A stretch of DNA of 64,000 bases from Takakia lepidozioides (taxonomy: Eukaryota > Plantae > Bryophyta). The translations under genes were made by a program, and so were the position numbers. Positions 30,800 through 63,401 of the stretch are shown in pieces; the first letter of the stretch is position 1; the number at the start of each line of letters is the position of its first letter. The stretch spans positions 94,116,001-94,180,000 of the forward strand of contig CM060731.1 of NCBI GenBank assembly GCA_030704615.1, given 5' to 3'. The notes under the pieces were generated by a model, which had not been told where the DNA came from, searched no databases, and saw only the letters and a program-made list of their open reading frames with translations.

Positions 30800-31570
30800 G
30801 ATGTGGCATAGGACTGAGGCCTGTGGTGGGAGTCATGGGGAGCCTTGGGGCTCACCACGGTCCATTGGGGCCGTGGTGGGTAGGCCAAGACTCATCGCGA
30901 CTCATCACAGGGAGTCGAGGTTCACGGTGGTGGCTCACCAAAAATGACTTGGGGGCTGTTTGTGAAACCCCCGCTGACACCTACAGAAGTATATATAGGG
31001 GAATAGTAACCCTGAGAACGGTGCAAGCCGGTGAAGCGACCAAAAAGCTAGTAAAGCAAATAAATGAGCCGGAAAATGACCAGTGTGGGAAGCTAGTCCG
31101 GACTGCCTTCAACCAATAGGGATTTCGACCTTGCCCAAGTGGTTGGGAATCATGTGAGGGGAGACCATTATGCCCCGGTGAGCAGCCGAAGCTCCAAGTT
31201 GGCTCGGCGGCCAGTTTGGGAGCTAGGTGCGCGCACCAAAACGAGTAACTACGACTTGAAAGATAATTTACCAAAATGAGGTGTGCGACATATATATAGG
31301 GAGTAGTAACCCGAGAACGGTGCACCCGTTAAGCAATCAAAGCTAGTGAAACGAACGAGCAAGCCGGAAGGCGACCAAGCGTGGGGAGCTAATCCGGACT
31401 GCCTTAACCATACGAAATTTACAAAAGGGCTCGGGGCGCAAGGGTCACTAAAAAGGGGACCATTACACCTCGGTGAGTAGGTGCAACTCGAAGTTGGCCG
31501 AGAGGCCAATTTGGGAGTTAGGCACACGTATCAAAATGTGTAACTATGACTTCAAGGGGAGTTACCAAAC
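30800..31570 (+). repeat. Diverged chromovirus LTR fragment with a tandemly duplicated 3' portion
   Basis: Homologous to about 1825-2328 and ending gtgtgcgaca at 31290. A second partial unit starts tatatatagggagtagtaacc. Confidence 0.75.
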
Positions 31571-41460: not shown

Positions 41461-42595
41461 GATGCTCCACCCGTTGTGCAAATCCACCGAATGGCTCCTC
41501 AGTCTGACAAAAGCAAGTTCATCGCTCCGCGTCTAGCACAATGGAGGATTCGACTCTACAGTCCTTGCACTTTTCTTACCAAGCCCGCCTGTCCAGCAAT
41601 GTACCTCGTTCTACTTCTAATACAAACAAGCGCGTGGTCGGATGCATGCAAGCCCTGCCCTAGTGTTTTGGACTATCATTCTAGCGACGACTAAAGGTCG
41701 GAGACGTTTAGCGTCACAGAGCATGAATAGGGTGCCATAGTGCCACGTCATCGTCGCCACGTTTCGTCGTCATTTTTTTTTGGAGTATGTCCGAAATGCC
41801 AGAAAGAAAGTAACTAGGAGAGGGGTCTGGTAGCGTGGGGAAGGGATGATGATGTCCCCGCGTCCTTGAGAGCTGAGGGGTTTCACACACCGATCGCAGA
41901 TAGAGACATTTGCAGATTATGAGTACACCGCAGGAGCTCTCACAGCTGGAATTTTCACAATGGTGGGACAACCGCAATCGCAAAGTGTGGCTTGTTCTTG
42001 ATGTACGATGTGAAGAAGTTTGTCCATCCTGCAAATGTGGGCTCTAATTGGCTCCTGTTAGTACCATGATTTGGTATTCTTCCTGATGTTTACAAGGTTC
42101 TTGGGAGAGTCAGCTTGGTCTTAGCAGGTAGTGTTTCAATCTCGGCTTGCTCAGCTGCACCGCGGTGGTTCTCACAGACCAATCCGACATTACCTGACTA
42201 CAGACACTGAAGATAACTTCTTGTCTCCAACTTTTAGTTAGAATCAATTGATGATCACAAAAGGATTTAGAAATTTGAAATGACATTTTTAATTTGACAT
42301 TGAAATACATATTATGTACCACATGACAAACTTACTTTAGATGTAGAGGCCTTATTCTAAGATCTACTTATCTTCCTTTTCCTTGGGTGAGAACGGAACC
42401 GTAATGTCATAGAACTTGCAATAGAGCCTCCGAAAGTGGTACTGGGTCTCTTCCTCTCCTCTGCCATTTTTTCTACAATTCTTACTTGGGGTAGGCTTCG
42501 CTCGGTCATGTACTAGGAATAATAATTTTATGTTTCTTGCTTACTGGTTTAGGTGGGCTGCCTTATGCTTGTGGCCAACCCCTGAACTATACATG

Positions 42596-43313
42596 TGTCG
42601 TGCGCATACATATCGCTACACAACTACATCGCTGTCCAAAACCACACAACACATGTGCACACCACACACTAGTATACCACTAGTCCCCACTAGTCCCACT
42701 AGTCCAACCACTAGGCTACAACTAGTCAGTCACTAGGCTGCCACTATGCTGCCCACTATGGCAGTCACTAGTCCACACAATGATAAAGAAGAAGAATACA
42801 AGCACAAGCTCATGCGAGCTCACAAAGCTGAAGCATAAACTCATGCATATATAACCTCATCACTCAAATACAAGTCAAGCCAAGTGCACCCCCACGCCAT
42901 GGGAATCCACACTACGGCGCCATAGCTAGGCGCGGTGAGGCTCAACTCGAGAAAGATGAGCCTCCCGCGCTTGCCGTGAAGATAACCACTCCAGGGCCTA
43001 AATCTGCCTTGACCCCTGGATTGACACTTGGGCCAATCCCAAATGTCAATATGTAAAAGCTAGCTATTTCCTAGCTAGTTTCACACTAGTGGTAAAATAA
43101 CTTGACAGCTGTCGTGCGCATACATATCGCTACACAACTACATCGCTGTCCAAAACCACACAACACATGTGCACACCACACACTAGTATACCACTAGTCC
43201 ACCACTAGTCCAACCACTAGTCCAACCACTAGGCTACAACTAGTCAGTCACTAGGCTGCCACTATGCTGCCCACTATGGCAGTCACTAGTCCACACAATC
43301 GCCCCCCTAGCTG
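42596..43313 (-). repeat. 3' terminal repeat block: A (42596-42779), B (42781-43107), gc, A (43110-43297), PPT (43298-43313)
   Basis: The two A copies are near-identical. B matches 57786-58112 (both 327 bp). PPT in element sense is ccagctaggggggcgat. Confidence 0.92.
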
Positions 43314-43555: not shown

Positions 43556-45005
43556 CTATCCCAAGCAGTGTGGACACAACCAATCTCCGTCAGGAACCTT
43601 CTCAAGAGGTGGTGTCAAGCATCCCATATGCCAACCCCTTGAGCATCGATCACACACCAGCATGGTGGCTGCCCCTTTGGCAGACCCACAGAGCATGCAC
43701 CTCAAACCTGCAGGTACCACTGCCAAGTTTGGGTCAACTCTGCCATCGACATTGGGAAGGTGACATGGCGCACAATTACGCACATGGTCCTTCCAAGTCA
43801 TGCCATCCCGACCCTCCAAGATCAGGACCCCTGAGGGCAACACCTCTCGAACCCTCAGAATAACACGCCCTGCAGTAACATCCAGAGTCGTAGGAGCAGT
43901 CTGCTGCAAATAAACATAGTCACCAGGGCTAAACCTCCGAACCCCAGGACGATATCCTCCACCACGTATAGTGGCATACCTCAACGTATCACGGTGCTGT
44001 GCAATGGCAAGGTTCTCAAAAGCCATGGGCATGACTTTCTTGAACAACTCTGCACGCTGATCACATGCACGTACCCACACGTCCGGATCGTCAAGGTTAA
44101 GGACTTGAGCAGTGTCCCTACGAATGGCTGCAGGCAAATCCGGCTCTCGGCCAAAGAGAAGGAAATATGGTGAGAAGGAGGCAAGTGATGCTTGTTTGCT
44201 GAACCTGTAGCCCATGGCTAACCAAGGAACCTGAAGATCCCAATCTCCTAGGTGTCCCTTCTGCAAGCCATACTTGCGCAAACCCTCTTCACCGTCTGAA
44301 CAACTCTCTCTGCTAAGCCATCGGCCTCAGGATGATCCCGAGAAGTGGTGCGGTGGTCTATCAAGGCTTTATCACACAAAGCCTGAAACTCCCCCAAGAA
44401 CTCTCTCCCTTGGTCCGTGAGTACCTCAGCTGGAGCACCAAATCGGCTAAGCACACGATCCAAGAATGCATACGCAGCCCCCTCACTAGCCTTGTCAGGC
44501 AATGGAACCAACTCAATCCACTTGGAGAAGTGCTCCACCATCACCAACACATATCTGTGGTGGCGCATAGTCAGTGGCAACGGTCCTGCGAAGTCAAGAC
44601 TCCACCTGTAGCCCAATCCCATGATTGGTAAAGGATGCAACTGTGGTGTAGGGGGAATGAAGCACGCACCCTGTCACACACCATGCACCTAGCCACAAAC
44701 TGTTGCACCTCTGTATGCATACCACGCCACCAATACTGCCCCTGCAGTAAACTGTGAGTGCGTCGCACTCCAAAATGCCCCAACTCCTCATGGGCATGCC
44801 GCACTAACCGTGCACGCTGTGTGGGGTGAGGCACAATCCTCACCCGACCATCCTCCCACACTCGAAGTAGGTGTATCCCCTCCCACTTGAACCTCTTGGC
44901 TCGTTGCAGGATCCGATCCCTCTCCCTGGCAGTCACAATGGCTGCCGTGTCTCCCGTGCGGAGGTAGTCCAACAGCCGAATCCTCATGTATATCTCTGGC
45001 ACCAC
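43556..45005 (-). CDS. Gypsy integrase (HHCC, DDE core) with C-terminal PHD finger; frameshifted in this assembly
   Basis: HEELGHFG..CMVC; WSLDFAGPL; VLTDQGREF; DGLAERVVQT; PHD CMLC..MLVCDRCSRGWHMGCLTPPL..GDWLCPHC. Confidence 0.93.
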
Positions 45006-45195: not shown

Positions 45196-46520
45196 TCAAT
45201 CCATCCGCATCCCGATTGACCAAACCCGGTCGATGCACAACCTGAAAGTCATACTCCTGGAGTATAGTGCCCACCGTGCAAGCTTCCCCGTAAGCTTGTC
45301 TGACTCCATCAACCACTTGAGTGGCTGGTGATCCGTGACAAGGGTGAAAAGATTGCCGTATAGATAGCACCTGAAGTGTGCCACGGCCCACACTGCAGCT
45401 AAGCACTCTCCCTCATATGAGCTGTACTTAGCCTCTGCAGCGTTGTTCGAGCGGCTAGCGTAAGCCACTACGAACTCTCTTCCCTCATCATCCACCTGTG
45501 TGAGCACCGCTCCAAGCCCCAGCATGCTCCAATCCGTATGCAGCTGAAAGGGACGCCCCCTGATAGGTCGTCTCAAGATAGGCGCCGAGGTCAACCTCGC
45601 CTTGAGCTCTTGAAAAGCTCGTTCCTGCTCATCTTCCCCTGCCACTCCTGGTCCACCTTGGTCAGCTTGGTTAGAGCCTTTGCAATGGTACTAAATCCCT
45701 TGACAAACCGTCTATAATAGTTTGCCAACCCCATGAAAGCTCGAACTCGGCTCACATCCGTGGGGCGTGGAATTTGTGCAATGGCCTCTACCTTAGTCTG
45801 CTGTACCCCCAATCCTCCAGGATATATCATGTGACCCAGATACTCAATCTGGTTGTGGAAAAACTTGCACTTCCCCGGATGCAACTTCAATCCGTGCGCT
45901 CTCAAGCGCTCCAATACCACCTGAAGGTGTCTCTCATGCTCCTCCATCGTAACACTAAAGATGATGATGTCATCTATGTAGCACCGAGCAAAGTCCACCC
46001 CTGCTAGAATCCTATCCATGACTCTCTGAAACTCTGCAGGAGCATTCTTAAGCCCAAATGGTAAGAACCGCCACTGATATAGGCAATCCTTGCCGTGCTC
46101 ATTGATCCCCCAGAATGCCGTCTTCTGCTTGTCCGCCTCCTTGATTGGCAACTGGTGATATCCGGATCGTAAATCCAAAGTGCTAAAGGCCTTAGCATGC
46201 CCGATGGCATCAAAGATCTCCTCTGTTGGCATGGCATACTTATCGGACTTGGTCTGACGATTTACAGGCCGGTAATCACCGCACATACGTCTCTCTCGTC
46301 CAATTGCCATAGACATCCTTCTTGGCTGGCATCACTGTGGCTGAAGCATCTCTCCACCAGAGAGCTCCACCAAACCTGCCTCCCAGAGATCTTGAGTCCT
46401 CATCTGAATCAAAGACCTCTCCATGTCACTGTATCTATAGGGTCTCCGAAAGATTGGCGTGTCAGTGGCCAACTCAATACGGATCTCTTGACCCTTCAGT
46501 GCTCCCAAGTCCTTCAAACT
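45196..46520 (-). CDS. Gypsy reverse transcriptase and RNase H; frameshifted
   Basis: [32 protein letters not shown] and YIDDI. RNase H: LHTDWSMLGLGAVL, YASR, TDHQPL. Confidence 0.95.
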
Positions 46521-46979
46521 GAAGGCAAAAATTCCTGTAAGCCCTCAGGAACCGCCGTATACGTCGTCTCTCTCCTCCGGTGACAATGGGTCCAATGTCA
46601 GGCTCCCAATTGTCCTCCGTAACTGCAACCTTAAGTCCAGTGGGCTTAGAGGTAGGACGCGTCCAGTGGTTGCTATGTTGCAACCTCTTGAGCAGTACTC
46701 CCTACCTGCTCAGTCAATGACAAGGCCTCATCCTGCCCCATCATCTCATCCTTGAGGACCTCCTCAACCCGAGAAGAATCCCCAACCTCATCCATCACAG
46801 CCGCCTTGGCTGCCAACTCCCTCTGAACTCGAGCACCTCCCACGTGTGCCATGGATGCATGCACCCCGTGGTCCTCACATGCTCGCCCCACTCACTGCCT
46901 GTACCGTCTCGGTAGGCAGAGAGACCATTGAGGGAAGTGTACTCCGCACTCTGCGTTGCTCAGCCAGAGCCAAGCTGAT

Positions 46980-47937
46980 AATCCAGGTCAAGCAATTGAG
47001 ATCCATTGCTTGCCCCAACACTTGACGACGTGATGCCTCAGAAAGAGACGACACCGCCGTGGTACCAGTGGTAAAACCCATTGCCCGCTCACGCTCGTCA
47101 GCATTAGGCTCCACTAACTGCTGCAACTGAGCATCCCACAGGAGGCCAGGTCCACTATCCCGGAAAGCATGCGATCCTGGGAAGCTGAGCAGTGTAGGTA
47201 ATGCTGCTCGTGGTTGACCCACCTTGTTGACCACTGCCAAAGGCGAACGGTCATCGTGTCTCACACGCTGAGACTGCCTCCCTGTGTCCAGAATGTTATC
47301 CACTGTGAGATGTGCTGGCCGCTGCACCCCATCAAATGCACGCTTGAGCAGTGCGGGTGGCATCAAGTTAGTCCACCATAGCCGTGGACGATGAGCCCGT
47401 GACCCCACTGTAGCTGCATCTAGCAACACTGCTGACCCAAGCCACGACCGGACTTGATGCACACTGGCCATCACCCTGCCCGAGAATCGCCCATCAGTGG
47501 CACATTCTCCAAGATGTATGCTGGAGATACAGCTTGATGAAGCTGCAAGTGGCGCAAAACCCGCACCATCTCCCAAAACAGACCCGACCTCGAGTCTCGC
47601 AATCCATTGCCATGCCCGGCTGATGAATGCCCTTGGCAGGGCCAACCTGCCACTACCAGATCAATGGAGCCAACCCGCTCCAAATCCTGCGCCCCCAGCA
47701 ACGAAATGTCTGCTGGCAAGGCCTGCTGATATCCACGAATTGCAGACACCGACAACAACTCAGGGTACCGCTGCACCAACTGAGCAACATGGCGAAGTGA
47801 AACGCGTCGTGCAGTCTCATCCCCTCCACATACAGGTAACGCCGAACTCGTACACCTGCCTGTAACACAGCAGCCAATCCGGTGCTGATCCCGCCAAACA
47901 AGTCCAGAAGACAAATGCCTTCATCCGGAACTGCCAC
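46980..47937 (-). CDS. DNMT3-like C5-cytosine DNA methyltransferase domain inside the Gypsy polyprotein
   Basis: Motifs in canonical order across three frameshifted ORFs: I LLDLFGGISTG, II YLYVE, III DI, IV DLVVAGWPCQGHS, VI YILENV, VIII AHRPRLWWTNL, IX ERERAMGF, X RRQVLGQAM. Confidence 0.93.
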
Positions 47938-48277
47938 ACAATAGGTGTGGTGTCCAATGGAGACAATTGAGGTGGTCCTGGTGCAATCCCCACACTCTCC
48001 TCCTCTCCTGACGGTACAAAAGCCTCCACCCAGGCTTGTTGCACCCGTCGATCAGCATCCCGCTGCAAATCCTTGCTCGTGCCCCACAATGGAGTCTGAG
48101 CAACCATGGTAGGCAACTCCGCCATACCATACATGTCATCCTGCTCTCCCGGAGGTGGTACATCCTCTGAATGAGCATTGCCCTCAAGCAACTCTCTAGG
48201 CCAACTCACTGCCGCTGTGAATGCTGCTAGTGTCGGCATCTTGCCTCGCTGGGCAACCGCAACTCCTCCTATGAACG

Positions 48278-50740
48278 TCACAGGGAGCTGCACACGCCGG
48301 CCCTCCCCTGACTGCCATGCAGGCCTATAGGAAGCTGACTCCTCCCAAAAATCCAGGGTGAAGCCCATGGGGTACAACACTGCCCCACCAACCAGACATC
48401 GTATGAGACTGCGTCTGTCACAATGGCCTTGGCTCGCATCACTGAGCCATCTGTAGGGTGATCCGGCCGTAGTCTGATAGCCAACTCATGCCGTGTCATG
48501 CCCCGAGCCTGCTCCGATCCTCCCAGAGACGTCTGTATCTGGAAAGGACAAGGCTCCATATCCGCCTCCGTGAGGCCCAAGCCTGCAATAGCAGCTCTGC
48601 CCAGCATCAGTGGCTGAGCTCCCGAGTCCAACAAGACCCGCAGTGGCCGGTACCTCTTGCCTGCCGGTCCACTCAAACAGAAAATGCCATCCTGGTTGTC
48701 TAACATGACAACTCCAGGTGTCACCATGGCGCGCTCAATGGCTGGCCTAGCTGGCAGCTCCATCAACCTGGCAGCTGCAGCTTGCCATGGCGCCGCCGTG
48801 GCAGTCTTGACCCTCAAATCCGAGGATCCCTCCGGCACTACACCTCCCACTATCTCCGCAGAAGATGAAGTAACCTCCCCACTCTCACAGAGTGTAGCTG
48901 CCAGCCTGAACACCTCAGCTGGTCTTACCCCCGGCGTCGCAATCATGGTAGCCGAGAACAATGGAGCCTGGCACACAGATGTGGCCGCTCCTAGCAGCAC
49001 ACTAGCTGCCGTAGCCTTGGCAACACTAGGTAGTGGTGCTACCCGTGTAGCTCTCCCCAATGGCATAGTAACCTCCGCCTCGGTAACAGTCGGGCGAGAA
49101 CTAGGTGCCATGGATGGCGTCGACACTGTCTCCGCCAATGTGAATGACTGAGGAAGCCTAGCCTGACGGCTTGCCTCCCCACGCTGTGGATCCAACTCCA
49201 CCTCTGCACCTCGTGGCTCAGGAACTCGTGCTGCTCCTCGAGTCACGGCTGCAGCAGACTCCACCTGCACTAGTGGTAGTGCTGCTCCACACATGAATCC
49301 CATGCCTCCCATATCTCCTCCCTCAGGAGCAGGAGGTGGACCATCCGGCCTTAGAGCCGGTACCACCTGAGCTGTAGCCATGGCAGCGAGCCTCTGCTCT
49401 AGCTGCTGAAGCCGGTTGGCCATGCCTTGGTCAACACCCTGACCTCCGCGTCCTTGGCCATGTTGAGCTTGCCCTTGGCCTGCACCTCGTGGCTGGCCAC
49501 CTCGTCCTCTCTGGGCTGCTCCACCTCGCCCCCGGCCACCATTGTTCCCTTGGAACTGGCCTGGGCGCAACTCAGGATGCAAACCATAACACTGGGCCTC
49601 TCCATGCCCGTGTTTGCCACAATGCCCACTGCAACTGTGCAGGCTGTGCATGTGCCGGCCCTTTGCCTCCCTCTGGGCAATCCTTCTTGACATGGGGTCC
49701 TCCACATGTCCAGCACACCACATCCGCCCGTTGTTGGCCAGCAAATGAAGGGAGAGACCCCTGCATCTGAGGTCCTCTCTGCCCTTCCCTGAGCTTCACC
49801 TGAGCCCCCTTGTTGCCTTGAGCACGTTGAGGTAGTGGTTGGCTAGGAGCACCACTACCCCGTGGTGTCTCCTTAGCAAATCCCACCATGACCACTCGTT
49901 CCACACCATGTTGAGCTCTATCCGCTCTGCCAGCAAAAACACATTTGCTAAGGTGGGTTGGGCCGCTTGTAGGAGAGTTGCATCCCGCACCCTTCTCCTC
50001 AGCTCCTTGTCCAATATCCCATACCAGAATTGGACTGCCTGAGCTTCCGTAACCCCTTGGGTTACATTTATCAAGCGCCTCATGCGAGTGAAAGCCTCCC
50101 TCAAGCTCTCGGTCGGCTTCCGTTGGAACTCTTGCAAGCTCCGCAACTTCTCTGTCCTCACCCCTTGGTAGTTCCCTCTCAACTCTTCGAAGAACTCCAC
50201 AACAGGGTTGAAGGCAGGCACGGGTGCTAGTGCTGGTGCGGTAGTGGCTTGGGTGGACGTCGTAGCTACTGTACCACCAGTCCCACTGCTATTTGCTGAA
50301 GCTGCCGGTGCAGCGGCAGGTGTAGCCACTGCCCTCGTGGCTCTAGTGCCCCTAGTGATGGAGACATAGTCGGGTGACCAGTACATCCTCCACTCCTCGA
50401 TCTCAACCTCATGCCCCCGCCTGAACTCATGGTAATCATCCATAGGCGGCCCCTCAAGGTGCTGAAACAGCCCCTTCCATGCATGAAAGGCGTAAATAGT
50501 TGTGGATTGCGCATTTGCTGCAAATCACACCAACTATCAAACTCTTGGATAAAATCATCCAACTCGATGTGCCCACCGCCCCCAGAGTACCTTCGTGGCC
50601 CCTTGGTAGCTCCATACATCTCCTCCATTGTGTCCCACAACAATGGCAAAGAAACAACTTGCACCGCCGGTATGAGTCCTCCTGATTCACAATCCGAATC
50701 AGAACCTTCCGTAGAAGACACAGGAGGTGAAGGTGGCCTA
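48278..50740 (-). CDS. Gypsy Gag (retrotransposon gag domain, Zn knuckles, RG-rich tract) and aspartic protease; frameshifted
   Basis: FQRKPTESLREAFTRMRRL, CWTCGGPHVKKDC, HCGKHGHGEAQC and VLLDSGAQPLML. About 340 bp at the gag 5' end is missing relative to copy 1. Confidence 0.85.
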
Positions 50741-51199: not shown

Positions 51200-52439
51200 C
51201 CCACACAGCTCACTGCTCACAGCCGTCACAGTCCCACAGGCCACTGGGCACAGCCTGTCGCCCCTCATAGCCCGTCACAGCTCGCCACAGTCATCACAGC
51301 CTCACAGCCCACAGCCCGCACAGCCCACAGCCTGTCACAGCCCGTGGCCACTGGGCAGTCACAGCCCCGCACAGCCCGTCACAGTCCCACAGGCCACTGG
51401 CACAGCCTGTCACAGCCTCACAGCCGGGCACAGCCTGTCACAGCCCCTCACAGCCCTCACAGCACAGCCCCTCATCAGGCACGGCCGCCCCTCACACCTC
51501 GGGCACGGCCTGGCCCCTCACAGCCCGTCACAGCCCCAAAGGCCTCAGGCACGGCCTGTCACAGCCCCTCACAGCCCCTCACAGCCCCACAGGCCATTGG
51601 GCACAGCCTGTCACAGCCCCGCACAGCCCGTCACAGCCCCACAGGCCACTGGGCACAGCCTGTCACAGCCCCGCCTGCCCGTCACATCACAGCCAGTCAC
51701 AGCCCCTCACAGCCCGTCACATCGCCACAGCCCCTCACAGCCCCTCACAGCCCCACAGGCCTCGGCACGGCCTGACACAGCCCCTCACAGCCCGTCACAG
51801 CCCCAAAGGCCTCAGGCACGGCCTGCCCACAGCCCCTCACAGCCCACAGGCCACTGGCACAGCCTGTCACAGCCCCCATAGCCCATCATAGCCCCACAGG
51901 CCACTGGGCACAGCCTGTCACAGCCCCAAAAGGTAACCGGCACAGCCCCCACATCCCAGCCCCCAAGGCCACTGGCGTAGCCCGTCACAGGCCCTCACAG
52001 TCACGACCCCGAGGGCCACCGGCAGGCCCTCACAGGCCCTCACGAAGGCCACCGGCGCAGCCCGGCACAGTCTTTAAGGCCACCGGCACAGCCCCTCATA
52101 GCCCCAAAGGCCTCAAGCACGGCCTGACACAACCCCTCACAGCCCCTCACAGCCCCAAAGGCCTCAGGCACAGCCTCACAGCCCCTCACAGTCAAGCAAC
52201 GTCACAGCCCCTCACAGGCCTCACACGGCCCCTGCCTGGGCACAGCCTGTCACAGTCACAGCCCCACAGCCCCACACAGCCGCCCCGCACAGCCCGTCAC
52301 AGCCCATAGGCCACTGGGCACAGCCTGTCATAGCCCCACACAGCCCGTCACAGCCCCACATGCCACTGGGCACAGCCTGTCACACAGCCCGCACAGCCCG
52401 TCACAGCTCCCCACAGCCCCTCACAGCCCCAAAGGCCTC
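51200..52439. repeat. cacagcc-rich minisatellite in the Gypsy 5' leader (copy 2)
   Basis: Long degenerate cacagccc/gtcacagcc array that resumes briefly at 56233. Confidence 0.9.
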
Positions 52440-54188
52440 TCAAATGGAAGGGCTATCATCATGTGGAGGCATCTTGGGTCCGTGCCTCAGAAATGGGAAA
52501 CGCATCCGAGGCGGTTGCAGCTTTCGAAGGGCGACCTCAAAAGCGGAAGAAGCGTTGATGGGGACATCAACCTTGGAGCGTGGGGGAGGAAATGCATGCT
52601 TAGCCCGGCTTAGCTAGCTTAGGGATCCGATTACAAAAACTTGTATTGTACAAAAATTTGTTATAAAGGAAATGGGTTCCAAATGTTATGCGTCCTATTT
52701 TGTTTGGAATGGTGATGCATGATATGGTTGGCTAGTGTGTAGAATGCATGCTAGCTTATAAAAGTGGGAGAGGTAAATTGGGTTAATCGTGTGTTTGTGT
52801 AGTGCCGAAATCAGGTGACCCCCATCCGAGGGGCAAGGAAACTTGCGCCTTCCTTGGGAGTTCACGTGCTAGTACGCACCTGGCGCGTGCGCGTACTATA
52901 ACTGCGCTACCGAGGGGGTTGCCTTGTAGTGCGGGCTAACGCGGAAGTTACGTGCTTCTGTTCACGTACTATAATCGTGTAGCCTCGGGACGAAGTCGTA
53001 GTGCGGCTTCGGCGTGTTTCCGTACCTCAGGCCAGCATTCCAAGGCGGACCCAATTGTAGTGATTGGGGCGCACGGTTTGGTTCAAGGTTATCTTCCTAG
53101 TCAAAGAGGGTTCCAGGGAACCCTTGCTCAAGGTGATGCCAAGAGTGGCATCATGAACGATCGCAAGCAATGTTGTTGCAGTAAGGCGATTCGATCCTCA
53201 AGGAGGATCGTTCCTTGGCCTTGAAGTAGGCCAAGAAGAGTGCACTGGGAAGAGCTGGAGAGGCTCCACCCTTGGCCGGGACTTGGAGGAAGTCGGCCGA
53301 ACTAGCTAGTGGAGAGTAGAGTCAAGTGTGGGGTTTGGTTCTTTGCCATGGGACGCCATGGTGCGGAAAACAAACTCCTTGATGTGGGACGCCACAACTT
53401 GGATGTTCGTTTCTACAAAATGGACAAGTCGATGAGGACATCGACTCCCTGTTGGTAGGGGTGTGTGTCGCGGCCCTTTGCCTTGAGGGCAGGGGGTCGG
53501 GACACATGAGGGGCTGCCCCTATGGTGGGGGCAGCGGCAGCGATAGGTATGGGGGGCTGAAGCACCCTTGAGTGCCCAAGGCACTCAAGGAGGCGGAGGC
53601 GCTCACTAAGTGGAGCCCCGCACACCGGGTTGCGGTGGGGGTGGCTCCACAAGGGGTGGTGGTAGCTTAGCGGGACTTAGTGGGGGTGGCATAGGACTCA
53701 CCATGGGGGCGGAGACCTCGTGGTGGGAGTCGTGGGGAGTCTTGGGACTCATCACGGTCCATAGGGGCCGTGGTGAGTGGGCCAAGACTCACCGCGACTC
53801 ATCACCGGGAGTCGAGGGTTTTCGTGGTGGTTCGCCATAAATGGCATGGCTGGTTATGAAACCCCCGCGGACAGCTACAGAAGTATATATAGGGAGTAGT
53901 AACCCCGAGAACGGTGCAAGCCCGTTGGTGACCAAAAACTAGTGAGTAAGCGAGCGAGCCGGAAAGCGACCAAAGAGTGGGAGCTGTTCCGGACTGCCAT
54001 CTACCAAAGGGAATTCCACTAGTCCCAAATAGGTGGAGGGTTTAGTGGGAAGCAAAGGGGGACTGTTATGTCCCGGTGAGCAGCCGAAGCTCCAAGTTGG
54101 CCCGGCGGCCAGGTTGGGAGTCAGGCGCGCGCATCAAAACGAGTAACTATGACGTGAAGGGGAGATTACCGAAGGGAGGTGCGCGACA
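52440..54188 (+). mobile_element. Chromovirus 3' fragment (chromodomain tail, 3' UTR, LTR 53466-54188)
   Basis: Matches 603-2328 except for an inverted segment of about 0.5 kb. Confidence 0.9.
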
Positions 54189-55068
54189 CACATCAGTCAA
54201 TTTGAGCATATGTGTATTGTGAACAATGAGAATGGCAATGATGCCAAAATGAGACTGTTTCCTTGTTCACTTATAAAGAAAGCAAGTGAATGGTATGCAA
54301 GATTCCCTAATAATCATTTCCTAACCTGGAATGGCCTCAGTACGGCATTCCGAAACAGGTTCAGGACAAGCAAAATCGAGGATGAAGTGTATGTGAGTTT
54401 ACAACAGTTAAAGCAAAAGAAGCATGAAACTGTTGAGGAGTACATGGAAAAGATGGAGTTGATGATGAAAAAGTTGGCTGCTGTATCAGCACCAGGGTTA
54501 CAGGAAGACCTGGTTTGTGAGTGGATTAAGACCGGAATTACAAAAGAAAGTGGATATGCTACCCCATAATATAGTGGAGGAGACATTTGAAACGGCCAAC
54601 AGAATTGAACAATTAGGAATGCTCAGGAGAGAGAAAATGGAGGATGAGGACTCTGAGGATGAGTCAGATGGGGAAGAAGAGCAAGAGCTCAAAAGGAAGA
54701 GTAAGAAAAAGGAAAAGTTGAAGAGGGAAAACTATGAGAAAAGACTGGAGGAGATCTTGAAGAAGTATGCCACAGAGGCTGCAACACATTGGAGGAAGGG
54801 TGTATGGTGTGCAAAATGCCAGAATGAAGGCCATACCACAGCTGAGTGCCACATGAAGGAGAAACATTGTACTCTCTGTAAAATGGATAACCATTCTACT
54901 GAGAATTGTTATTACAACAGAAGGACAGCTGCAAGAGAACCTAGCCAAGTAAGGGTGCATCAAGTGCAGCCCCAGCCAAGAAGGAACAGTGATCAAGACC
55001 ACTATGGTAGGCCTGGTAGATATAATAACGGTATGGCAGGGAGAGGTAATCCAAGAGGGAATTACTAA
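54189..55068 (+). pseudogene. Gag fragment of an unrelated LTR retrotransposon
   Basis: MRLFPCSL..ASEWY..TWNGL..F..RF and LKQKKHETVEEY, with two Zn knuckles CAKCQNEGHTTAEC and CTLCKMDNHSTENC. AG-rich and frameshifted. Confidence 0.8.
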
Positions 55069-55094
55069 GGAAATCCCAGAGGCAACTATCAGAA

Positions 55095-56230
55095 ATATGA
55101 CTTTCAGGTGGTACATCGACCCGGTCTAGTCAATCGGGATGCGGATGGGTTGAGTCGCAATCCATGCACGAGCCAGCAGGATGACACTGGAGCTCGGTGC
55201 CATGGTGAGACGGACGAGGAGATGGTGCCCGGATGACATGCATCTGCAAACCTTGCCATTGCACAACATCGTGATACGTTGAGGTATGCTACCATACGTG
55301 GTGGGGGCTATCGTCCTGGGGTTCGGAGATTTCACCTTGGTGACTATGTTTATCTGCAGCAGACTGCTCCAACGACCCTGGATGTGACTGCAGGACGTGT
55401 TATTTTGAGGGTTCGAGAGCTATTGCCCTCAGGCGTCCTGATCTTGGAGGGTCGGGATGGCATGACTTGGAAGGACCATGTGCGTAATTGCGCGCCATGT
55501 CACCTTCTGAATATCGATGGCAGGATTGACCCAAACGTGGCAGTGGTACCTGCAAGTTTGAGCTGCATGTTGTGTGGGTCTGCTAGAGGGGCAACCACCA
55601 TGCTGGTGTGTGATCGATGCTCTAGAGGTTGGCATATGGGATGCTTGACTCCACCTCTTGAGATGGTTCCTGATGGGGATTGGTTATGTTCGCATTGCAT
55701 TGGATAGTGGGAGTGGATACAACCATGGAAGGCTAACAAGAAATGCAAGGTCAAGCTACTATGAGACCAACACACGAGATCCTGGCTCAAGTTCACAGAT
55801 TGTAAGACGACGACTAACGATGGGGCTACTCTTGTACCCGGCCTCTTGGTCTATAGAATTTGAGTACAATAGGGATAGTGATAGAGGACTTATTACGGTT
55901 GTGGCTATTACATCTTGTAGCTATCTGGAGTTAGAGTGACCTAACCACCAGCTAGGGGGGCGATTGTGGCAGACTACTTTATTGTGCATATATGTGTGGT
56001 GTGGTTTGGACAGCGATGTAGTTGTGTAGTGATACGTATGCGCACGACAGCTGTCAAGTTAAATAAACACAGTGTGAAACTAACTAGAATAAATCTAGTT
56101 ATTTGTATTTAACAATTGGAATTAGTTCAAGTGTTAAGTCAGGTGTCAAGTTTAGCTTGACACCTTAACCATCTTATCTTCACGAGCTCGTCGGTCGTGA
56201 GAGATGAGCCTGCACTACCGAGCTCCCTCG
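55095..56230 (+). mobile_element. Internally deleted PHD-Gypsy subfamily 3' fragment: RH tail fused to INT C-terminus/PHD, then PPT, A (55965-56049), gc, truncated B
   Basis: YDFQVVHRPGLVNRDADGLSR, then a PHD ORF at 55279-55707. Terminal sequence gctaggggggcgat|tg...gcacgaca gc tgtcaag. Confidence 0.85.
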
Positions 56231-57785
56231 TGCCTGTCACAGCCCCTCACAGCCCGTCACAGCCCCATCCATGGCTGCTCTGGCAGTTTAGCCATTTCTC
56301 CAAGGGGTTTAGCCACGCCAAGCTAGGGTTTGTGTCTCTTGGACTCTAGGCTTCTTTCCACCGAGCTATGGCGGCTGTGAGGAAATCAGCAAGGTATTCT
56401 TGCTCTTTCGGCTCCCACACACCACCATAGTAGCCCTAAGCCATGAGGTGGTTGCCACAAACCAAGCCTTCTTTCTCACATAGCCTCCCCAAACACGCCA
56501 CTAAACTCAATGGCAAACAACCAAGCCCTGCTGGTTCCCAGCCCTTGTGAGCACTCATTCAAGCACTCTCCTTGGCCATAGCATCTGTCTTAGAGCCTAT
56601 TCCAGCCCTCTACACCTGTTGCTTCAAGAGTTGCGCTCCCTTCAAGCTTGAAGTTGAAACCCCAACTCACATAGGCCCTACAAGTGCTTTTCTTTCACTC
56701 CAAGTGGAAACCAGCCCTAGACCTTCCGTTCTAGCTCTCTAAGGCTTGAAAACAAGAGCCTCAATGGGCTGAAGGCATGCTCCACACATGCCCCACTCTC
56801 ACCATAAAAGAATCAGCTCCTTTGCTTCATTTCTTGCACCCACAAACCTAAAAAAACAAGCTTCAGCAGGCTGAAAGCATGCTCCGCCTGCCCTACAGGG
56901 AAACCAGCCCCTTCCTTCCTTTCTTGCACTCCCACACCTGAAAGTGCAAGCCTTCACCAGGCTGATAGCATGCTCCACACATGCATTGCCCTCACATAAG
57001 GGAAGTCAGCCCTTCCCTCTTCCTTGCTTGCCCTCCAAGCTTGAAGATGGAAGCTTCAATGAGCTGAATACATGCTCCACACATGCAACCTCTTCACACA
57101 AGAGATATCAGCCCCCTATCTTGGCTCCTTGATGCTCTCTAAGACAAGACTAAGCACTCCACAGCCCTTGCCAAGCTCCTGAAACCGTAAGGCTTATATT
57201 TCCAGCCACAAGACACTCCTCTTTGGTGCAAGAACTTTTCTTCCAAGCTCTGAAACCCTAGGTGCACATTCCATGGCCTTGCCGCACCTCTTAGCTCCTG
57301 TTCCAGCCCCGCTCTTGCCATGGCAAGAGCCCTCATATCGCTGGAGTTTCAGATTGAAACCCCCAACTCAACATAGCCACAAATGCATCTTGCATACAAG
57401 AGAAATCAGCCATCTCTTTTCACTCATACCTCCTTATGAGCTTGAAGTTGGAGCTCCCGATAACTGTGACTTACATTTAACACCCTCGCAGCTCCACATT
57501 GCTGCAGCTCCTTAACTTGGCCTGCAGCTGAAGAAGACGACCACCAGGAGTAGCCCAAACTTGGTTGCCATAGCGTTGAGCTATGCAACGCCGCTCTTCA
57601 ACATAGGCTACCCGCCTCTCTATCCATTGCAAACCTGCAACCTGTTCGCCTTTGCACTCTATCCACTTTGGATAGGCTCATGCACGGATCGCTGCACTCT
57701 AGGCTGAACCGCTTCTCATGAAAACACAAGTGCTACAAAGCAACTCGAACCTGGCACTCACAAACTCGAGCTGATCTTTCTCGAG

Positions 57786-58112
57786 TGATAAAGAAGAAGA
57801 ATACAAGCACAAGCTCATGCGAGCTCACAAAGCTGAAGCATAAACTCAGGCATATATAACCTCATCACTCAAATACAAGTCAAGCCAAGTGCACCCCACA
57901 CCATGGGGAATCCACACTACGGCGCCATAGCTAGGCGCGGTGAGGCTCAACTCGAGAAAGATGAGCCTCCCGCGCTTGCCGTGAAGATAACCACTCCAGG
58001 GCCTAAATCTGCCTTGACCCCTGGATTGACACTTGGGCCAATCCCAAATGTCAATATGTAAAAGCTAGCTATTTCCTAGCTAGTTTCACACTAGTGGTAA
58101 AATAACTTGACA
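57786..58112 (-). repeat. 5' terminal B repeat of DNMT-Gypsy copy 2
   Basis: Near-identical to 42781-43107, with no A repeat outside it. Confidence 0.92.
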
Positions 58113-59833
58113 CATGGTTAAGTCGTTGCCCTCTCAGAGTTTCTCGTTTTGTCAATTCCTAGTTACACTAGTGTGTTCCCTTCTGCTTCGGATAAATTCT
58201 CGGGTATGACTCCATCCTGCCTTGCCCCAACCCTAAGCCCAAGACCAGATAGAATATTTGGGATGACGTGGGTATTAAACAGTATTTCTATGTTCTTACC
58301 AGGTGCTGCTAACCTGAGACATCATGGGGTTTCATTGTGGCACCATTTCATCAATGCACATGCTGGCAGCACTGCCAGCTTCTTTTATGTCATGCCATGT
58401 TCCCGCTGCAAGGTGGGTGCCATGCGATTGGCCTTATCACACTATTACAAGCCAGAGCTGATGTTTAGCCGATATTTCTAATGCTCACCTTTGCAGCTCA
58501 ATAGCTATGAGGTAGATGGTTATGAGTGTTGAAACCTGCAAATGTTGACCTCCAGATGACTAGAATAAGAGAGAATAATTGTACAAAACGCTTGCCAGCT
58601 ATTTTATCACTTCATATTCTTTGGTTGGAAATCCATTTTCGAAATGTACGCCGTTATATGTTCTCAGATATTATGTGGTTTTTGACCTATTCACCTGGGA
58701 AAGACCCTGACTAGACATAAAAAGGCAGAAGGGTTGAAAGCCAGTGGGCACGCACGGCGAGGTTCAGAACTCAGTTTGACAGTATAAGCTTGGTCCTCTG
58801 TATTCTGCAGTAAGTACCAAGTTCTACATGGAGTAAATAACATTGTGGCTACACATGCCCAACAATCAAGGCAACTCAAAAGTACACAGCAACTGTTGTT
58901 ACATCAGATTCATTTGGGTTATTGCAATTGACAAACAAAGTCTTATAAGTACATTCTCAGCAGGTAGCAGAATAGTTGGTCTCAACTGTTAGATGTTGCT
59001 TCCCTTCATCTCTCTCTGCCCACTGCTTCTTGACTGGACAGGGAAAAATACTTCAACCCTACAATTGTTTATGACCACCTAGGCGAGATATTTTCAACTC
59101 TTATTATTGGGAGTTTTATCACAGATATGCCATATTTTTCATGAAAGTGAGAGGCGTGGAGTACTTACGAGCTCGTCCGAGACCAGTTCGGAAATTGGAC
59201 AGAATAGACAATGTGCAAAAGATGGAACTTCTTTAGCTGGACATTTTTACTTGCGATAAGATGATTGTTGAGGGAAATATTTGTGTCAAAATCTGGGAGG
59301 CCTACAATTGAGGCTGTAAAATGTCAGGCTTGTTCAGGACCGATGCACATCATAAATCCTACTTAATACCCTAGCATACCAGCAGACCTCTATCATGGAT
59401 GGGAGTGCAGCACAGTGATGACTTCCACCCACTTCTCTCCATTTGTAATTTCTACTGAAAGGTTCTTTCATGTAAGGAATTTTCCAAGAATCGCCTGCAG
59501 GAGCCTAATATTTAACCTAACCCTTCCCCGTGGTGGATGCAATTGACTTTGCTTAACTATGTTATAAAATATTGGAGCTCCTCTTCGGGTTTACTGGTTC
59601 TTCCACTGCTGCATGGTGTGACTATTTGCATTGGGGCCTGTAGCAGAGGAGAGATACCGTAAACGAAACAGACAATGGTCTGCAAGATTTGCAAGATGTA
59701 CCAGTAAGTTATCTTGTCATAAACCCACTTTCTGTATCTGTAAAATCGCTTTCTAGATGTTATTATCTCGGGATTGTGCAATGTTATGTCATGTGCCTTG
59801 ATGTCTTTGCTCATGTGTTTGTACTGAAGTCCT

Positions 59834-60050
59834 TGTCGTGCGCATACGTATCGCTACACAACTACATCGCTGTCCAAACCACACCACACATATATGCACA
59901 ATAAAGTAGTCTGCCACAATGATATGAAAACTAAACTCACACTGTTTGAAAACACAGAAACACGAAATACAACACAATCACTCGTTAAAATAAGAGTCGA
60001 GCCAGGGGCACCCCAAGCTATGGGGACTCCACCCCACAACATCCTACTTT
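59834..60050 (-). repeat. Terminal A (59834-59918) and start of B of the same subfamily as 55965-56049
   Basis: tgtcgtgcgcatacgtatc...ctgccaca a tgatatg. A is the reverse complement of 55965-56049. Confidence 0.85.
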
Positions 60051-61009
60051 CCCTCAAGTATTGCCTTCACCTCGTACTCAGGTTCATTTTCATGATCCAA
60101 CAGCATAGGTGGCGAACGCAACACTTGATGTCGATTCGGACGCGCTTCATCTTTGAAGTAAGGCTTCAAAAGGGAGACATGGAATACTGGGTGCACCTTG
60201 CTGTTTGCCGGCAGCTCCAATTCATACACATCCTCATTCATAACCTTCCGAATGCGAAAGGGTCCCGCATACGGAGGTACGAACTTCGGACTCACTTCCG
60301 GAGGTAGTCGGAAATTCTTGATGTTCAACCAGACCTCTGTGCCTGCCTCAAACTTCACTTCCCTCCGCTTCCGATTCGCCTACATTTCATACCGTTTCCT
60401 AGCTTTGGCAATATTGTACTTTGCGAGCTTCAACAAACGCTCGCGTTCTTCCAGTACCGCCGCTACTGCCGGTTCCTCAACGTCCTGGGCGGCCCAACTT
60501 GTCGGCACCAGAGGTGCTTTTCCATAGACCAATACGAAAGGAGAAACTCCCGTTGCGGAGTGTTCTGTGTTATTATAACATAACTCTGCCGCGTCTAGGT
60601 GTTCCATCCAGTCTGATTGGTCTGCCGACACGTAATTCCGCAAGAATTGCTTCACTACGGAATTCACTCTTTCCGTTTGGCCGTCCGTCGTAGGTCGGAA
60701 GGCGGTGCTCATCTTCAACCTCCTCCCCATCTTCTTCCAAAGTGTCCTCCAAAATTTACACGTAAACTTTGGATCGCGATCCGAGACAATATCCTTCGGG
60801 ACTCCATGATGCTTTAAGACGTGGGCGAAGTAAAGTCGCCCTGTCTCCTGCGCCGTTGCCGTCTCCTTGGTGGGGATGAAATGGCCCATTTTATTGAACC
60901 TATCCACCACCACCATGATTACATCGAATCCTTTTGACAGCGGCATAGCAGTCATGAAATCCATCGAGACGCTTTCCCAAGTCCCCTCTGGAATCGATGA
61001 CTCGAGCAA
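60050..61009 (-). pseudogene. Chromovirus integrase fragment
   Basis: WESVSMDFM, VVVDRF, IVSDRDPKF and TDGQTERVN; near-identical to 1-560, with an internal stop. Confidence 0.9.
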
Positions 61010-61099
61010 CCATGGAGCTGTCGAAAGATACCATCAGTCGCTTGGTGGAAGCGGTGGTCGCCAGGACTTGCAAGGTAGGCAACTATTCTTGTGAGTTGT

Positions 61100-62901
61100 A
61101 TCAGGAAACTGGCGCCCTGCGTAAATTCAGTTATTGTTCGTGGATGGGATAATATCCGGAACTAATGTGTCGTTGTTGGTGGACACAGGAGCGTTGCACT
61201 CCTTCATGACACCGGCGGCGGCGCGAAAGTTGGGACTCCCGACAAGTGACGTGGGGGCCTCTATTGAGGTGCGTTCTGCCAAAGGAGACCCACAGTTGGC
61301 GACAAGGTTGGCGTTTGATGTTCCTCTTCAACTGGGGAGTTAGGAGGGACGTGAGAACTTCACCATCTGCGAGATCGATGGAGTGGATCTCATTTTGGGG
61401 ATGACATTTTTGAGCAAATCCGGAGCGGTCATAGATGGCCGCAAGAGAGTGATCACGCTGCCATGTGGGAATGATGGCGAGGTTTTACGAGTGTCGGAAA
61501 CACCCAAATCCGTGGGAGGGCGAATAAACCTTCTGTCAGCAAGGGAGTGGGCCGTGGAGGAGGCACACGAGCCCCAGTTTTTGCTTTACATTAGAGAAGT
61601 GAAGGGAGAAGGCGATGGGGAGCCGAGCCCAGATTGGATCAAGGGGATCTTGGAGAAATACCGGGATGTGATGCCGGAGGTTGAGCCACAGGGAGTTGGT
61701 CGAGCTGAAGACTCAGCTCAAGGATCTAATCTCAAAAGGGTACATCCGGCCGAGTAAGTCACCTTACGGAGCCCCGGTGCTATTCACAGACAAGAAGGAT
61801 GGGACGCTGCAGATGTGTGTCGATTACAGGGCTTTGAATAAGGTGACTATTAAAAACCGGTACCCTTTGCCAAGGATCGACGACCTTTTCGACCGGTTGG
61901 CATGAGCGAAGTATTTCAGCCGGATCGACTTGCGCTCCGGCTATCATCAAATTCGGGTGGCGAAAGGAGATGAGGAGAAGACCGCGTGCAGGACAAGGTA
62001 TGGTTCATATGAGTTCTTGGTGATGCCTTTTGGGCTCACTAATGCACCGGCGACCTTTAGCACGCTGATGAACAGCCTTTTTCAGGAGTGGTTGGATGAC
62101 TTTGTGATCGTGTACATCGACGACATCTTGGTGTACTCGAAAACAAAGGAGGGAACACCCTGGAGCACCTCAAAAGGGTGTTCCAAAAGTTGCGGGAAAG
62201 GAAGCTGTACGCCAAAGCTTCAAAATGCGAATTCGGGGTCACAAAAGTGGAGTTCTTGGGGCATGTGATTACACAGGATGGGATCAAAATGGATGACAGA
62301 AAGGTGAGGGCGATCTTGGATTGGGAGCCTCCGACTTCGGTCCCGGAGTGCGATCCTTCCTAGGACTCGCCTCCTATTACCGGAAGTATGTGAGAAATTT
62401 CGCCAAGATCGCGGGGCCGTTGTCGGACCTTCTGTGTAAATCCAAAGTCTGGGTATGGAACACATTTTGTGGCCAAGCTTTTGCTGAATTGAAGCAGCGG
62501 ATGGCGGAAGCTCCAGTCTTGAAAATCCCGGAGTTTCGATCGTCCATTTGAGATTCATACAGATGCGTCGGACTTCGCGATTGGGGGTGTACTTATGTAA
62601 GATGAACGTCCAGTGGCTTACGAAAGTAAGAAACTAAATGAAGTGGAGGCCGACGCACAAAAAAGAGATGAAGGCGGTGGTGCACTGTCTTGAGCTTTGG
62701 CGCCACTATGTTGGTTCCAACCCAGTGAAGGTGTTCACGGACAATGTCACGGTGAAGTATTTGCCACGCAGCCCAAGTTGTCCCCAAAACAACTTAGGTG
62801 GCAAGATACTTTGGCGGTATTCGACGTGGATATCCAGTACAAACCGGGACGAGACAACGTGGTGGCCGATGCTTTAAGTAGAAAGCAGCAGCTCTTGTTG
62901 G
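61100..62901 (+). pseudogene. Chromovirus PR-RT-RNase H, degenerate, running into an assembly gap
   Basis: [50 protein letters not shown] and NVVADALSRK, with stops and frameshifts. Confidence 0.92.
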
Positions 62902-63401
62902 NNNNNNNNNNNNNNNNNNNNNNNNNNNNNNNNNNNNNNNNNNNNNNNNNNNNNNNNNNNNNNNNNNNNNNNNNNNNNNNNNNNNNNNNNNNNNNNNNNN
63001 NNNNNNNNNNNNNNNNNNNNNNNNNNNNNNNNNNNNNNNNNNNNNNNNNNNNNNNNNNNNNNNNNNNNNNNNNNNNNNNNNNNNNNNNNNNNNNNNNNNN
63101 NNNNNNNNNNNNNNNNNNNNNNNNNNNNNNNNNNNNNNNNNNNNNNNNNNNNNNNNNNNNNNNNNNNNNNNNNNNNNNNNNNNNNNNNNNNNNNNNNNNN
63201 NNNNNNNNNNNNNNNNNNNNNNNNNNNNNNNNNNNNNNNNNNNNNNNNNNNNNNNNNNNNNNNNNNNNNNNNNNNNNNNNNNNNNNNNNNNNNNNNNNNN
63301 NNNNNNNNNNNNNNNNNNNNNNNNNNNNNNNNNNNNNNNNNNNNNNNNNNNNNNNNNNNNNNNNNNNNNNNNNNNNNNNNNNNNNNNNNNNNNNNNNNNN
63401 N
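62902..63401. other. Assembly gap (500 N)
   Basis: Run of N. Confidence 1.

Follow-up and report, generated by a model that had tools for sequence, protein, structure and literature searches.

Evidence for a Decayed Ty3/Gypsy Retrotransposon with a DNMT3-Type Cytosine Methyltransferase and Split Terminal Repeats in Takakia lepidozioides

The window analyzed here, the whole 64,000-nucleotide stretch of Takakia lepidozioides DNA, almost certainly contains a decayed copy of a Ty3/Gypsy retrotransposon carrying a DNMT3-type C5 cytosine methyltransferase (DNMT) domain, located at 47925-46953 on the minus strand (copy 1). Translation and motif mapping placed motifs I, IV, VI, VIII, IX, and X in canonical order between 47907 and 47001 (minus strand), with the following sequences in copy 1:

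47907-47887, minus strand, LDLFGGI
47650-47633, minus strand, AGWPCQ
47515-47501, minus strand, ILENV
47399-47364, minus strand, RAHRPRLWWTNL
47090-47073, minus strand, ERAMGF
47024-47001, minus strand, QVLGQAMD

As stated in the original prediction, the C5 methyltransferase motifs are in order and the PC, ENV, and RxR residues are kept; all of the motifs it named were mapped, spread over three reading frames; the frame is broken near 47823 and 47485 within the domain and again near 47928, just upstream. The predicted position between protease and reverse transcriptase (RT) was also recovered, with the protease motif LLDSGAQ (48634-48614) upstream and the RT motif YIDD (45980-45969) downstream. 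In a Pfam scan of 22 window ORFs, the proposed check with PF00145 returned matches in both window copies (E 5.2e-13 for the middle DNMT piece of copy 1 and 9.1e-12 for copy 2), and the order downstream of the DNMT was RVT_1, RT_RNaseH, Integrase_H2C2, rve, and PHD. The second copy carries the domain in the same position, as had been claimed, at 17983-16189, where it contains two in-frame stops and a motif I reading LFDGI and is split by an 835-bp insertion (16997-17831). This insertion has terminal inverted repeats of the form CACTA...TAGTG, together with a duplication of 3 bp (AAC), and is likely a non-autonomous CACTA element. Self-comparison of the two copies gave 93-95% identity over the coding parts, and their DNMT sequences differ by dN 0.048 and dS 0.028, which corresponds to neutral divergence. 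Both window copies are dead, as their frameshifts, stops, and insertion indicate. The features of copy 1, from its 5' end, and the extent of copy 2 are as follows:

58113-58116, minus strand, left copy of the 4-bp target-site duplication (CATG)
57786-58112, minus strand, repeat A1, 327 bp, starting TGTCAAG and finishing TATCA, 98.8% identical to A2
57770-57785, minus strand, PBS-like stretch directly after A1, 15/16 complementary to 57966-57951 within A, a likely self-primer site by its presumed role
56232-57769, minus strand, 5' untranslated region (UTR); 56232-57387 and 57721 onward are common to copy 2 (22163-23338, 23542-23939)
52440-56150, no strand assigned, later insertions foreign to the element, comprising a Gypsy-like piece (gag 54153-54566) and an inverted 3' fragment of the same family (55090-56150)
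51200-52430, minus strand, tandem-repeat array of the 5' UTR; copy 2 equivalent at about 21100-22200
48100-50628, minus strand, gag (Retrotrans_gag E 7e-4), zinc-knuckle region, and aspartic protease, with frameshifts and one stop
46953-47925, minus strand, DNMT3-type domain, motifs I-X, two internal frameshifts
46667-46675, minus strand, conserved stop TAG CAA CCA terminating the Gag-PR-DNMT ORF (copy 2: 15909-15901), a likely site of putative read-through
45200-46331, minus strand, RT (RVT_1 E 1e-32) and RNase H (E 3.7e-34), frameshifted
44251-45005, minus strand, DDE integrase, matched by H2C2 (finger) at E 4.3e-17 and by rve (core) at E 1e-14; D, D, and E motifs at 44604, 44421, and 44334
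43559-43700, minus strand, C-terminal PHD finger of the integrase (PF00628 E 3.6e-11)
43299-43312, minus strand, polypurine-tract-like (PPT-like) AGCTAGGGGGGCGA, kept in relatives
43110-43298, minus strand, repeat B1, finishing CACGACA
43104-43113, minus strand, B1|A2 joint, palindrome GACA-GC-TGTC, whose central GC is missing from both element ends
42781-43107, minus strand, repeat A2
42596-42780, minus strand, repeat B2, 97.9% identical to B1, finishing CACGACA at the element end
42592-42595, minus strand, right copy of the target-site duplication (CATG)
15401-23932, minus strand, copy 2, with A1 (23932-23606), UTR, gag-PR, DNMT (17983-16189), and TAG CAA CCA, stopping early in RT

Other contents of the window were recorded alongside these copies. 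Additional 3' fragments and B ends of the DNMT3-carrying family or its sub-families lie at 25667-26602 (minus), 27420-28806 (plus), 55090-56150 (plus), 13979-14041, and 59834-59920, and the pieces in the window number at least five. The sequence AACCATG directly precedes A1 in both copies (58113-58119 and 23933-23939) and the remaining flanks differ; this may reflect chance or a target preference, the latter not being seen in the moss-like loci described below. Pieces of one other Gypsy-like family occur at 52440-54566 (with its gag at 54153-54566, inside the copy 1 5' UTR), 603-2328, and 30816-31569, and retroelement remnants at 60383-62265 include an integrase (rve, minus strand) and an RT (plus strand). 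A 425-aa ORF at 2733-4007 (minus strand) with a weak SWIM finger (E 0.0027) is perhaps a MULE transposase remnant. A 500-N assembly gap (62902-63401) separates low-complexity ORFs.

Sequence and modeled structure of relatives indicate that the window domain is an unpermuted, element-encoded enzyme of the DNMT3 type. In DRM enzymes the motif order is permuted, with VI-X preceding I-V; the window domain runs from I to X, and a DRM identity was rejected. Against the PDB, the open Marchantia relative P0006 matched DNMT3A best (E 1.7e-8), followed by DNMT3B/C, while HaeIII reached 0.001 and DRM2 0.31. A second relative, P0007, with 71-86% identity to three window DNMT pieces, was modeled with AlphaFold (pLDDT 85.9, pTM 0.87, 22-row alignment), and a Foldseek search with this model had DNMT3A/B/C chains alone among the matches listed (top E 2.4e-19). 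The early description of the domain as DNMT3-like and not permuted as in DRM therefore held, given the motif order and the best matches of its relatives by sequence and fold.

Searches for relatives revealed a broad distribution. The C-terminal DNMT piece retrieved 89 longer proteins, with Calypogeia fissa (76%) first, then Marchantia polymorpha (73%), and with Sphagnum also represented; a DNMT profile search added Riccia and Haematococcus, and a profile search of 1.84 billion representatives yielded 584 clusters at E <=1e-30. By architecture, 327 proteins were divided into a first type with the DNMT after gag/protease or before RT (51 proteins), a second type or sister group with the DNMT after RT/RNase H or before integrase (124), those with the DNMT alone (151), and one without it. 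Named members of the first type, with names checked for 30 proteins, come from liverworts, Sphagnum, Klebsormidium nitens (GAQ93235.1), and Closterium. The sister group, with the order RT-RH-DNMT-IN-PHD (P0214, P0174, P0049, P0184, and others), has named members from Scenedesmus and Haematococcus, and no description of its architecture was found in the available sections of the related literature examined. GAQ93235.1 (P0285), with the protease before the DNMT and 42% identity over 163 aa (E 1e-34), is presumably the protein of KnitGypsy-Dnmt3, the element known from K. nitens.

A DNMT tree of 47 first-type proteins and 45 sampled from the 115 second-type proteins, drawn without host DNMT3, DRM, CMT, and MET1, was split by architecture, and the 47 rows with the protease before the DNMT (PR-type), P0285 included, grouped with a support of 0.99 (FastTree, midpoint root). 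The window copies were placed beside one protein, adjoining the Marchantia and moss-like groups, and an RT tree was compatible with this topology (40 of 70 second-type rows). On these phylogenies, the window family appears to be the land-plant branch of the streptophyte lineage to which the Klebsormidium element belongs, and not to stem from a capture of its own.

Metagenomes provided further copies. Among the best 80 of 160 confirmed loci, the order gag-PR-DNMT-RT-RH-IN-PHD recurs in complete or partial form; the main locus group is called moss-like here after its Sphagnum proteins, a presumed affiliation. Four public runs span the DNMT region with many variant contigs, one of them lacking one bin. 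In run X3, contig depth summed to 0.75-1.2 million over the DNMT region and was 71 on one flank contig; this figure is not a copy number, but it hints that the element is present in very high numbers. A search of viral contigs gave no match to the element. Since the window is full of nested elements, we also weighed whether a host DNMT3 fragment had been captured by chance or inserted into an unrelated element, or whether the assembly was at fault. This explanation has a negligible probability and was ruled out by the recurrence of the domain order, in many metagenome loci and in parts in liverwort, Sphagnum, Closterium, and Klebsormidium proteins; the purifying selection described below and the variant contigs of the four runs also stand against it.

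In Marchantia polymorpha, five proteins of 1278-1281 aa are 95.5-96.7% alike (Mp_4g09160, Mp_5g06330, Mp_5g06860, Mp_Vg00370, and Mp_Vg00540), and these Gag-PR-DNMT copies are young and open. Two of them, P0363 and P0364 (Mp_Vg00370 and Mp_Vg00540), are open 1281-aa Gag-PR-DNMT proteins with Mp_Vg / MARPO_Y names, which we take to denote the V (male) sex chromosome of Marchantia.

The DNMT appears to be under purifying selection at the family level. Compared with the moss-like relative L008, the window DNMT showed a pN of 0.172 and a pS of 0.731, and the RT 0.136 and 0.751; across the moss-like group, the ranges were 0.17-0.20 and 0.73-0.74 for the DNMT, with pS near saturation, and 0.14-0.16 and 0.73-0.75 for the RT. 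Of the selection test suggested in the original prediction, the comparison between families (pN 0.17, pS 0.73) thus spoke for purifying selection, whereas that between the two window copies was neutral. Within 58 non-redundant moss-like copies, singleton DNMT variants were likewise neutral (pN/pS 0.97), while variants found in at least four copies gave ratios of 0.59 for the DNMT, 0.41 for the RT, 0.39 for the integrase (IN), and 0.32 for RNase H (RH). The higher DNMT ratio suggests that its constraint is weaker, or that methylation-driven decay is stronger. A stop-free, single-frame DNMT domain was found in 2 of 80 loci.

Alignment columns of 37 PR-type proteins showed the catalytic Cys in 36, the ENV Glu in 37, and the two motif VIII Args in 35 and 37. 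In the sister group (RNase H-DNMT-IN), the Cys is kept in 115 of 115 proteins, and Cys, Glu, and Arg are almost invariant. The Pro of motif IV is replaced by Glu in 68 of these 115 proteins, with the Cys kept, and in 7 of the 37 PR-type proteins. This replacement would suit a domain retained for a non-catalytic task, such as DNA or RNA binding or a decoy of host silencing factors, or for an RNA substrate. The K. nitens domain, which did not methylate DNA in yeast, points the same way, a result called inconclusive by its authors, with DNMT3B likewise inactive (PMC5890265, section 10, as available). The near invariance of the catalytic residues in both groups argues against such a role, which we regard as improbable.

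Between the Gag-PR-DNMT and RT-RH-IN-PHD parts, an in-frame stop is present in 47 of 50 linkers, drawn from 48 loci and the two window copies that have a DNMT end and an RT start, some rows representing one insertion from several samples. At the aligned junction, 34 linkers have TAG, 13 have TAA, and GAG, GAA, and a gap occur in 1 each; this codon is followed by CAA in 48; it is never CAG or TGG in the 50 linkers, which argues that the stop is ancestral rather than a product of decay. DNMT and RT share a frame in 32 of the 50 copies. The expectation that the domain would be in frame with pol was borne out in these copies; the domain nevertheless belongs to the Gag-protease ORF, and a conserved stop precedes the RT. 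The five Marchantia proteins all terminate 92 residues past motif X.

A leaky-stop motif that promotes read-through is UAG-CAR-YYA (CARYYA), and the TAG CAA CCA of the window agrees with it. A literature search for the CARYYA motif found nothing, and a putative stem-loop past the stop gained hardly any support from covariation (2 of 19 pairs, term +0.17; 11 rows, of which L001 is non-homologous). Read-through of the conserved stop is the probable source of RT-RH-IN-PHD, and the DNMT would then likely reach the levels of Gag. RT-RH-IN-PHD could instead come from a message that is spliced or re-initiated: the moss-like stop context is TAG CAA CCC ATG, with the ATG two codons past the stop in most copies, and the gene models P0014 and P0056 join DNMT to RT. 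These joins are at different places by eye, however, and the window copies have CTG/CTA at the ATG position yet keep TAG CAA CC. In addition, 32 of 50 decayed copies keep the frame across the stop, and five more distant proteins, one of them from Closterium, have no stop and form a single open frame into RT (P0237, P0329, P0334, P0335, and P0377). A separate message is accordingly considered rather unlikely, and read-through remains the preferred reading.

The ends of the window element form split direct repeats, A...B-GC-A-B, as seen by self-comparison and in the sequence itself. The arrangement A...B-A-B was also found in L019, L060, L062, and L064, and B-A-B 3' ends in L017, L029, and L059 (5' end outside the sequence). 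The distant pair L065/L067 has two repeats at its 3' end, and nine locus records have a single B there. In 18 of 18 locus records, and in copies 1 and 2 of the window, no B was observed upstream of the 5' A, and neither two full direct LTRs (B-A...B-A) nor the form A-B-A...B was seen among them. A canonical Ty3/Gypsy LTR element was rejected on this solitary 5' A, although the TG...CA termini and the 4-bp target duplication do agree with one. DIRS elements integrate via a tyrosine recombinase. An element of the tyrosine-recombinase kind (DIRS/Ngaro/VIPER) was rejected as well, since the window element has rve and no tyrosine recombinase family was detected in the 60 ORFs scanned out of 81 window ORFs of at least 120 aa.

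Target duplications of 4 bp flank the A start and the last B end in 6 of 7 distinct complete insertions: CATG in the window, TCTC in L060, CATA in L062/L064 (one site), TACA in L016, TGTT in L078, and TGTG in L042, the exception being L019 with its damaged A start. This position suggests that integrase joined the element at the B|A boundary, which internally is the palindrome GACA-GC-TGTC; at A2|B2, the end of A is joined flush to the start that follows the PPT. The single-B record L042 (13368-13482) and the B-A-B record L059 (7604-8171) have a common 3' flank (94-96%) and about 1 kb extra between PHD and B. The single B of L042 is thus likely a later deletion or an assembly collapse, an explanation preferred to the 1-LTR circle products also considered for single-B ends.

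The stretch following A1 is likely a self-primer, judging from its complementarity, which is kept with different sequences: 15/16 in the window and, among 11 loci, 7 in register, 1 shifted, and 3 without it. TATAAA lies about 26-30 nt upstream of this stretch in 8 of 11 moss-like loci, and no TATA box was found upstream of the window self-primer site.

A working scheme can be proposed from these elements, in which the LTR corresponds to B-GC-A. Reverse transcription would be self-primed and the DNA closed into a circle, the LTR-LTR joint of which would be the A2|B2 joint. A staggered integrase cut in the GACA-GC-TGTC palindrome would then free two CA-3' ends, and the element would insert in permuted form. 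The integrase of foamy virus reportedly cuts 2-LTR circles at a palindrome in their joint (PMC1180852, available sections). Cutting of a circle at the palindrome is given an even chance here. A 2-LTR circle would contain two identical palindromes, and random cutting predicts A-B-A...B forms, of which none was seen; this bias is not explained by a simple circle model. The second palindrome is never used, which favors a route of the DIRS/Ngaro type, in which an A1-to-B2 RNA is copied and the B1-A2 joint templates preformed ends, giving a linear or nicked molecule and no 2-LTR circle cut. Such a route accounts for the constant A at the 5' end (18 of 18 records), and VIPER, Ngaro, and PAT-like elements have A1...B1-A2-B2 as their standard order (PMC6681497, as available). 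It is at odds with the PPT-like tract directly before B1, the PBS-like stretch directly after A1, and the flush A2|B2 joint, which fit ordinary LTR-type reverse transcription followed by end joining. We therefore treat the DIRS/Ngaro-type route as possible but doubtful and retain the circle as the working model.

Packaging of the DNMT and self-methylation by it can be proposed. In live copies, the enzyme would likely be packed into the particle at capsid levels and would likely methylate the freshly made element DNA. The idea that the element methylates its own cDNA is evenly balanced in our assessment. The methyl marks might make the circle and the new insertion resemble host DNA, or leave them pre-silenced. 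The PHD finger has CHD4, KDM5B, PHF12, KDM5A, and ATXR5 as its best solved relatives, with PHF21A also similar. The PHD fingers of CHD4, KDM5A/B, PHF12, ATXR5, and PHF21A are readers of unmethylated H3 tails; the element finger may tether integration to such tails and so take the place of the ADD domain of animal DNMT3.

Alternatively, the methyltransferase could act on host chromatin instead of cDNA, with the integration complex or after insertion, and methylate the target site or competing elements. The CHD4/KDM5-type PHD on the integrase in both architectures and the DNMT directly before the integrase in the sister group (124 of 327 proteins) would favor such a role. The DNMT of the window family lies in the Gag ORF and a stop separates it from the integrase, so a particle-filling role fits better, and action on host chromatin is judged fairly unlikely. 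The joint reading, in which a Gag-PR-fused DNMT3 is packaged and methylates new element DNA, the RT is made by read-through, and the circle is cut at the palindrome, is slightly favored. More speculative, and doubtful in this full form, is the reading of an old green-plant Gypsy lineage that is still live in liverworts and mosses. Its DDE integrase would open a circular DNA at one internal palindrome and so produce permuted LTRs, the circle having been methylated beforehand by a Gag-fused DNMT3 at capsid levels.

The family bears on why some retrotransposons carry an enzyme that silences them. One plant-lineage domain has been tested and was inactive in yeast, according to the available part of PMC5890265, and K. 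nitens is not a routine genetic model. With the open Marchantia polymorpha copies, activity, sequence context, and self-methylation become directly testable, and extra DNMT3 activity in this species could affect the interpretation of host methylation mutants. LTR-finding tools that require two full LTRs would likely miss or mis-cut such elements, which may be the reason for the absence of bryophyte descriptions. The combination of split repeats, DDE integrase, and target duplication implies an unusual integration intermediate; if the circle reading is true, a natural integrase element would routinely take a circle route long doubted for retroviruses. If the proposed methylation is true, the family would be a mobile element through which land-plant genomes acquire de novo cytosine methylation.

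Comparison with known systems places the window family closest to its algal counterparts. The original prediction had mentioned DNMT-carrying retrotransposons from Klebsormidium and dinoflagellates, and these were identified as KnitGypsy-Dnmt3 and SymbioDIRS-Dnmt3 (PMC5890265, available sections). It had also named no characterized land-plant family; in agreement, our literature search, with supplementary trees and subscription journals outside its scope, found no published embryophyte description of Gypsy-DNMT3. The word "Marchantia" is absent from the available text and supplement of PMC5890265. For this kind of element, bioRxiv 10.64898/2026.05.21.726589 and PMC12344493, the latter citing the 2018 paper, speak of "streptophytes" in their available text. 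A literature search aimed at split repeats with an integrase also found no published description.

Several elements resemble the window family in part. SymbioDIRS-Dnmt3 of Symbiodinium also has a Dnmt3 domain on a retrotransposon and is the sole kind with de novo CG methylation in yeast in the available part of PMC5890265; it differs in its DIRS order, its dinoflagellate host, and, according to the same paper, its independent capture. For DIRS elements, methylation of self-DNA in the particle was proposed by de Mendoza et al. (PMC5890265, section 11, as available). VIPER, Ngaro, and PAT-like elements share the split direct repeats A1...B1, A2, B2 (PMC6681497, available sections), and the window element differs from them in its DDE integrase, TG...CA ends, and 4-bp target duplication. 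Tf1/Sushi and plant Tcn1 likewise have a PBS-like stretch complementary to their own LTR and not to a tRNA, self-priming being described for Tf1/Sushi and predicted for Tcn1 (PMC6317226, as available); unlike them, the window element has a PHD finger rather than a chromodomain, permuted ends, and a DNMT. The EpiLTRs of Cymbomonas and Euglena also combine an LTR element with a DNMT and a chromatin reader, but their DNMT is sister to DNMT4 and is accompanied by DAM and a chromodomain, and they are set apart from the streptophyte Gypsy-DNMT3 (bioRxiv 10.64898/2026.05.21.726589, available text). Phygy and Selgy (REXdb) are short, with the internal part filled by the coding region, in contrast to the long 5' UTR and tandem array here; Phygy prefers NCGN targets, whereas the duplications of the window family are CATG, TCTC, CATA, TACA, TGTT, and TGTG.

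Host PpDNMT3a/b and MpDNMT3b share the unpermuted DNMT3-type catalytic domain in non-flowering plants, but they are stand-alone proteins with a C-terminal DUF3444, while the window domain lies inside a Gag-protease ORF (PMC6453930 and bioRxiv 2021.02.12.428880, available sections). A host DNMT3 identity was rejected, as only a short tail lies between the window domain and the stop that precedes RT, with no stand-alone DUF3444 layout.

The closest system is KnitGypsy-Dnmt3 itself. Its legend (Fig. 4c of PMC5890265) describes DIRS-like repeats with Gypsy domains. According to the available text, it is a Gypsy element whose Dnmt3-type domain is unpermuted, lacks introns, and is under purifying selection; the window family shares these features and the DIRS-like repeats. 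RT, RNase H, H2C2, and rve (DDE integrase) are likewise present in the window element. The PHD finger, self-primer, palindromic joint, and target duplication receive no mention for KnitGypsy-Dnmt3 in the available text of PMC5890265. The window family differs in its land-plant host, its apparently very high abundance, and its conserved in-frame stop, as DNMT, RT, and RNase H of KnitGypsy-Dnmt3 are in one ORF (PMC5890265, available sections). This stop, in 47 of 50 linkers despite the same frame, marks a variant lineage and not KnitGypsy-Dnmt3 itself. The window family is thus a land-plant variant of the streptophyte Gypsy-DNMT3 elements, which we found in print from algae only.
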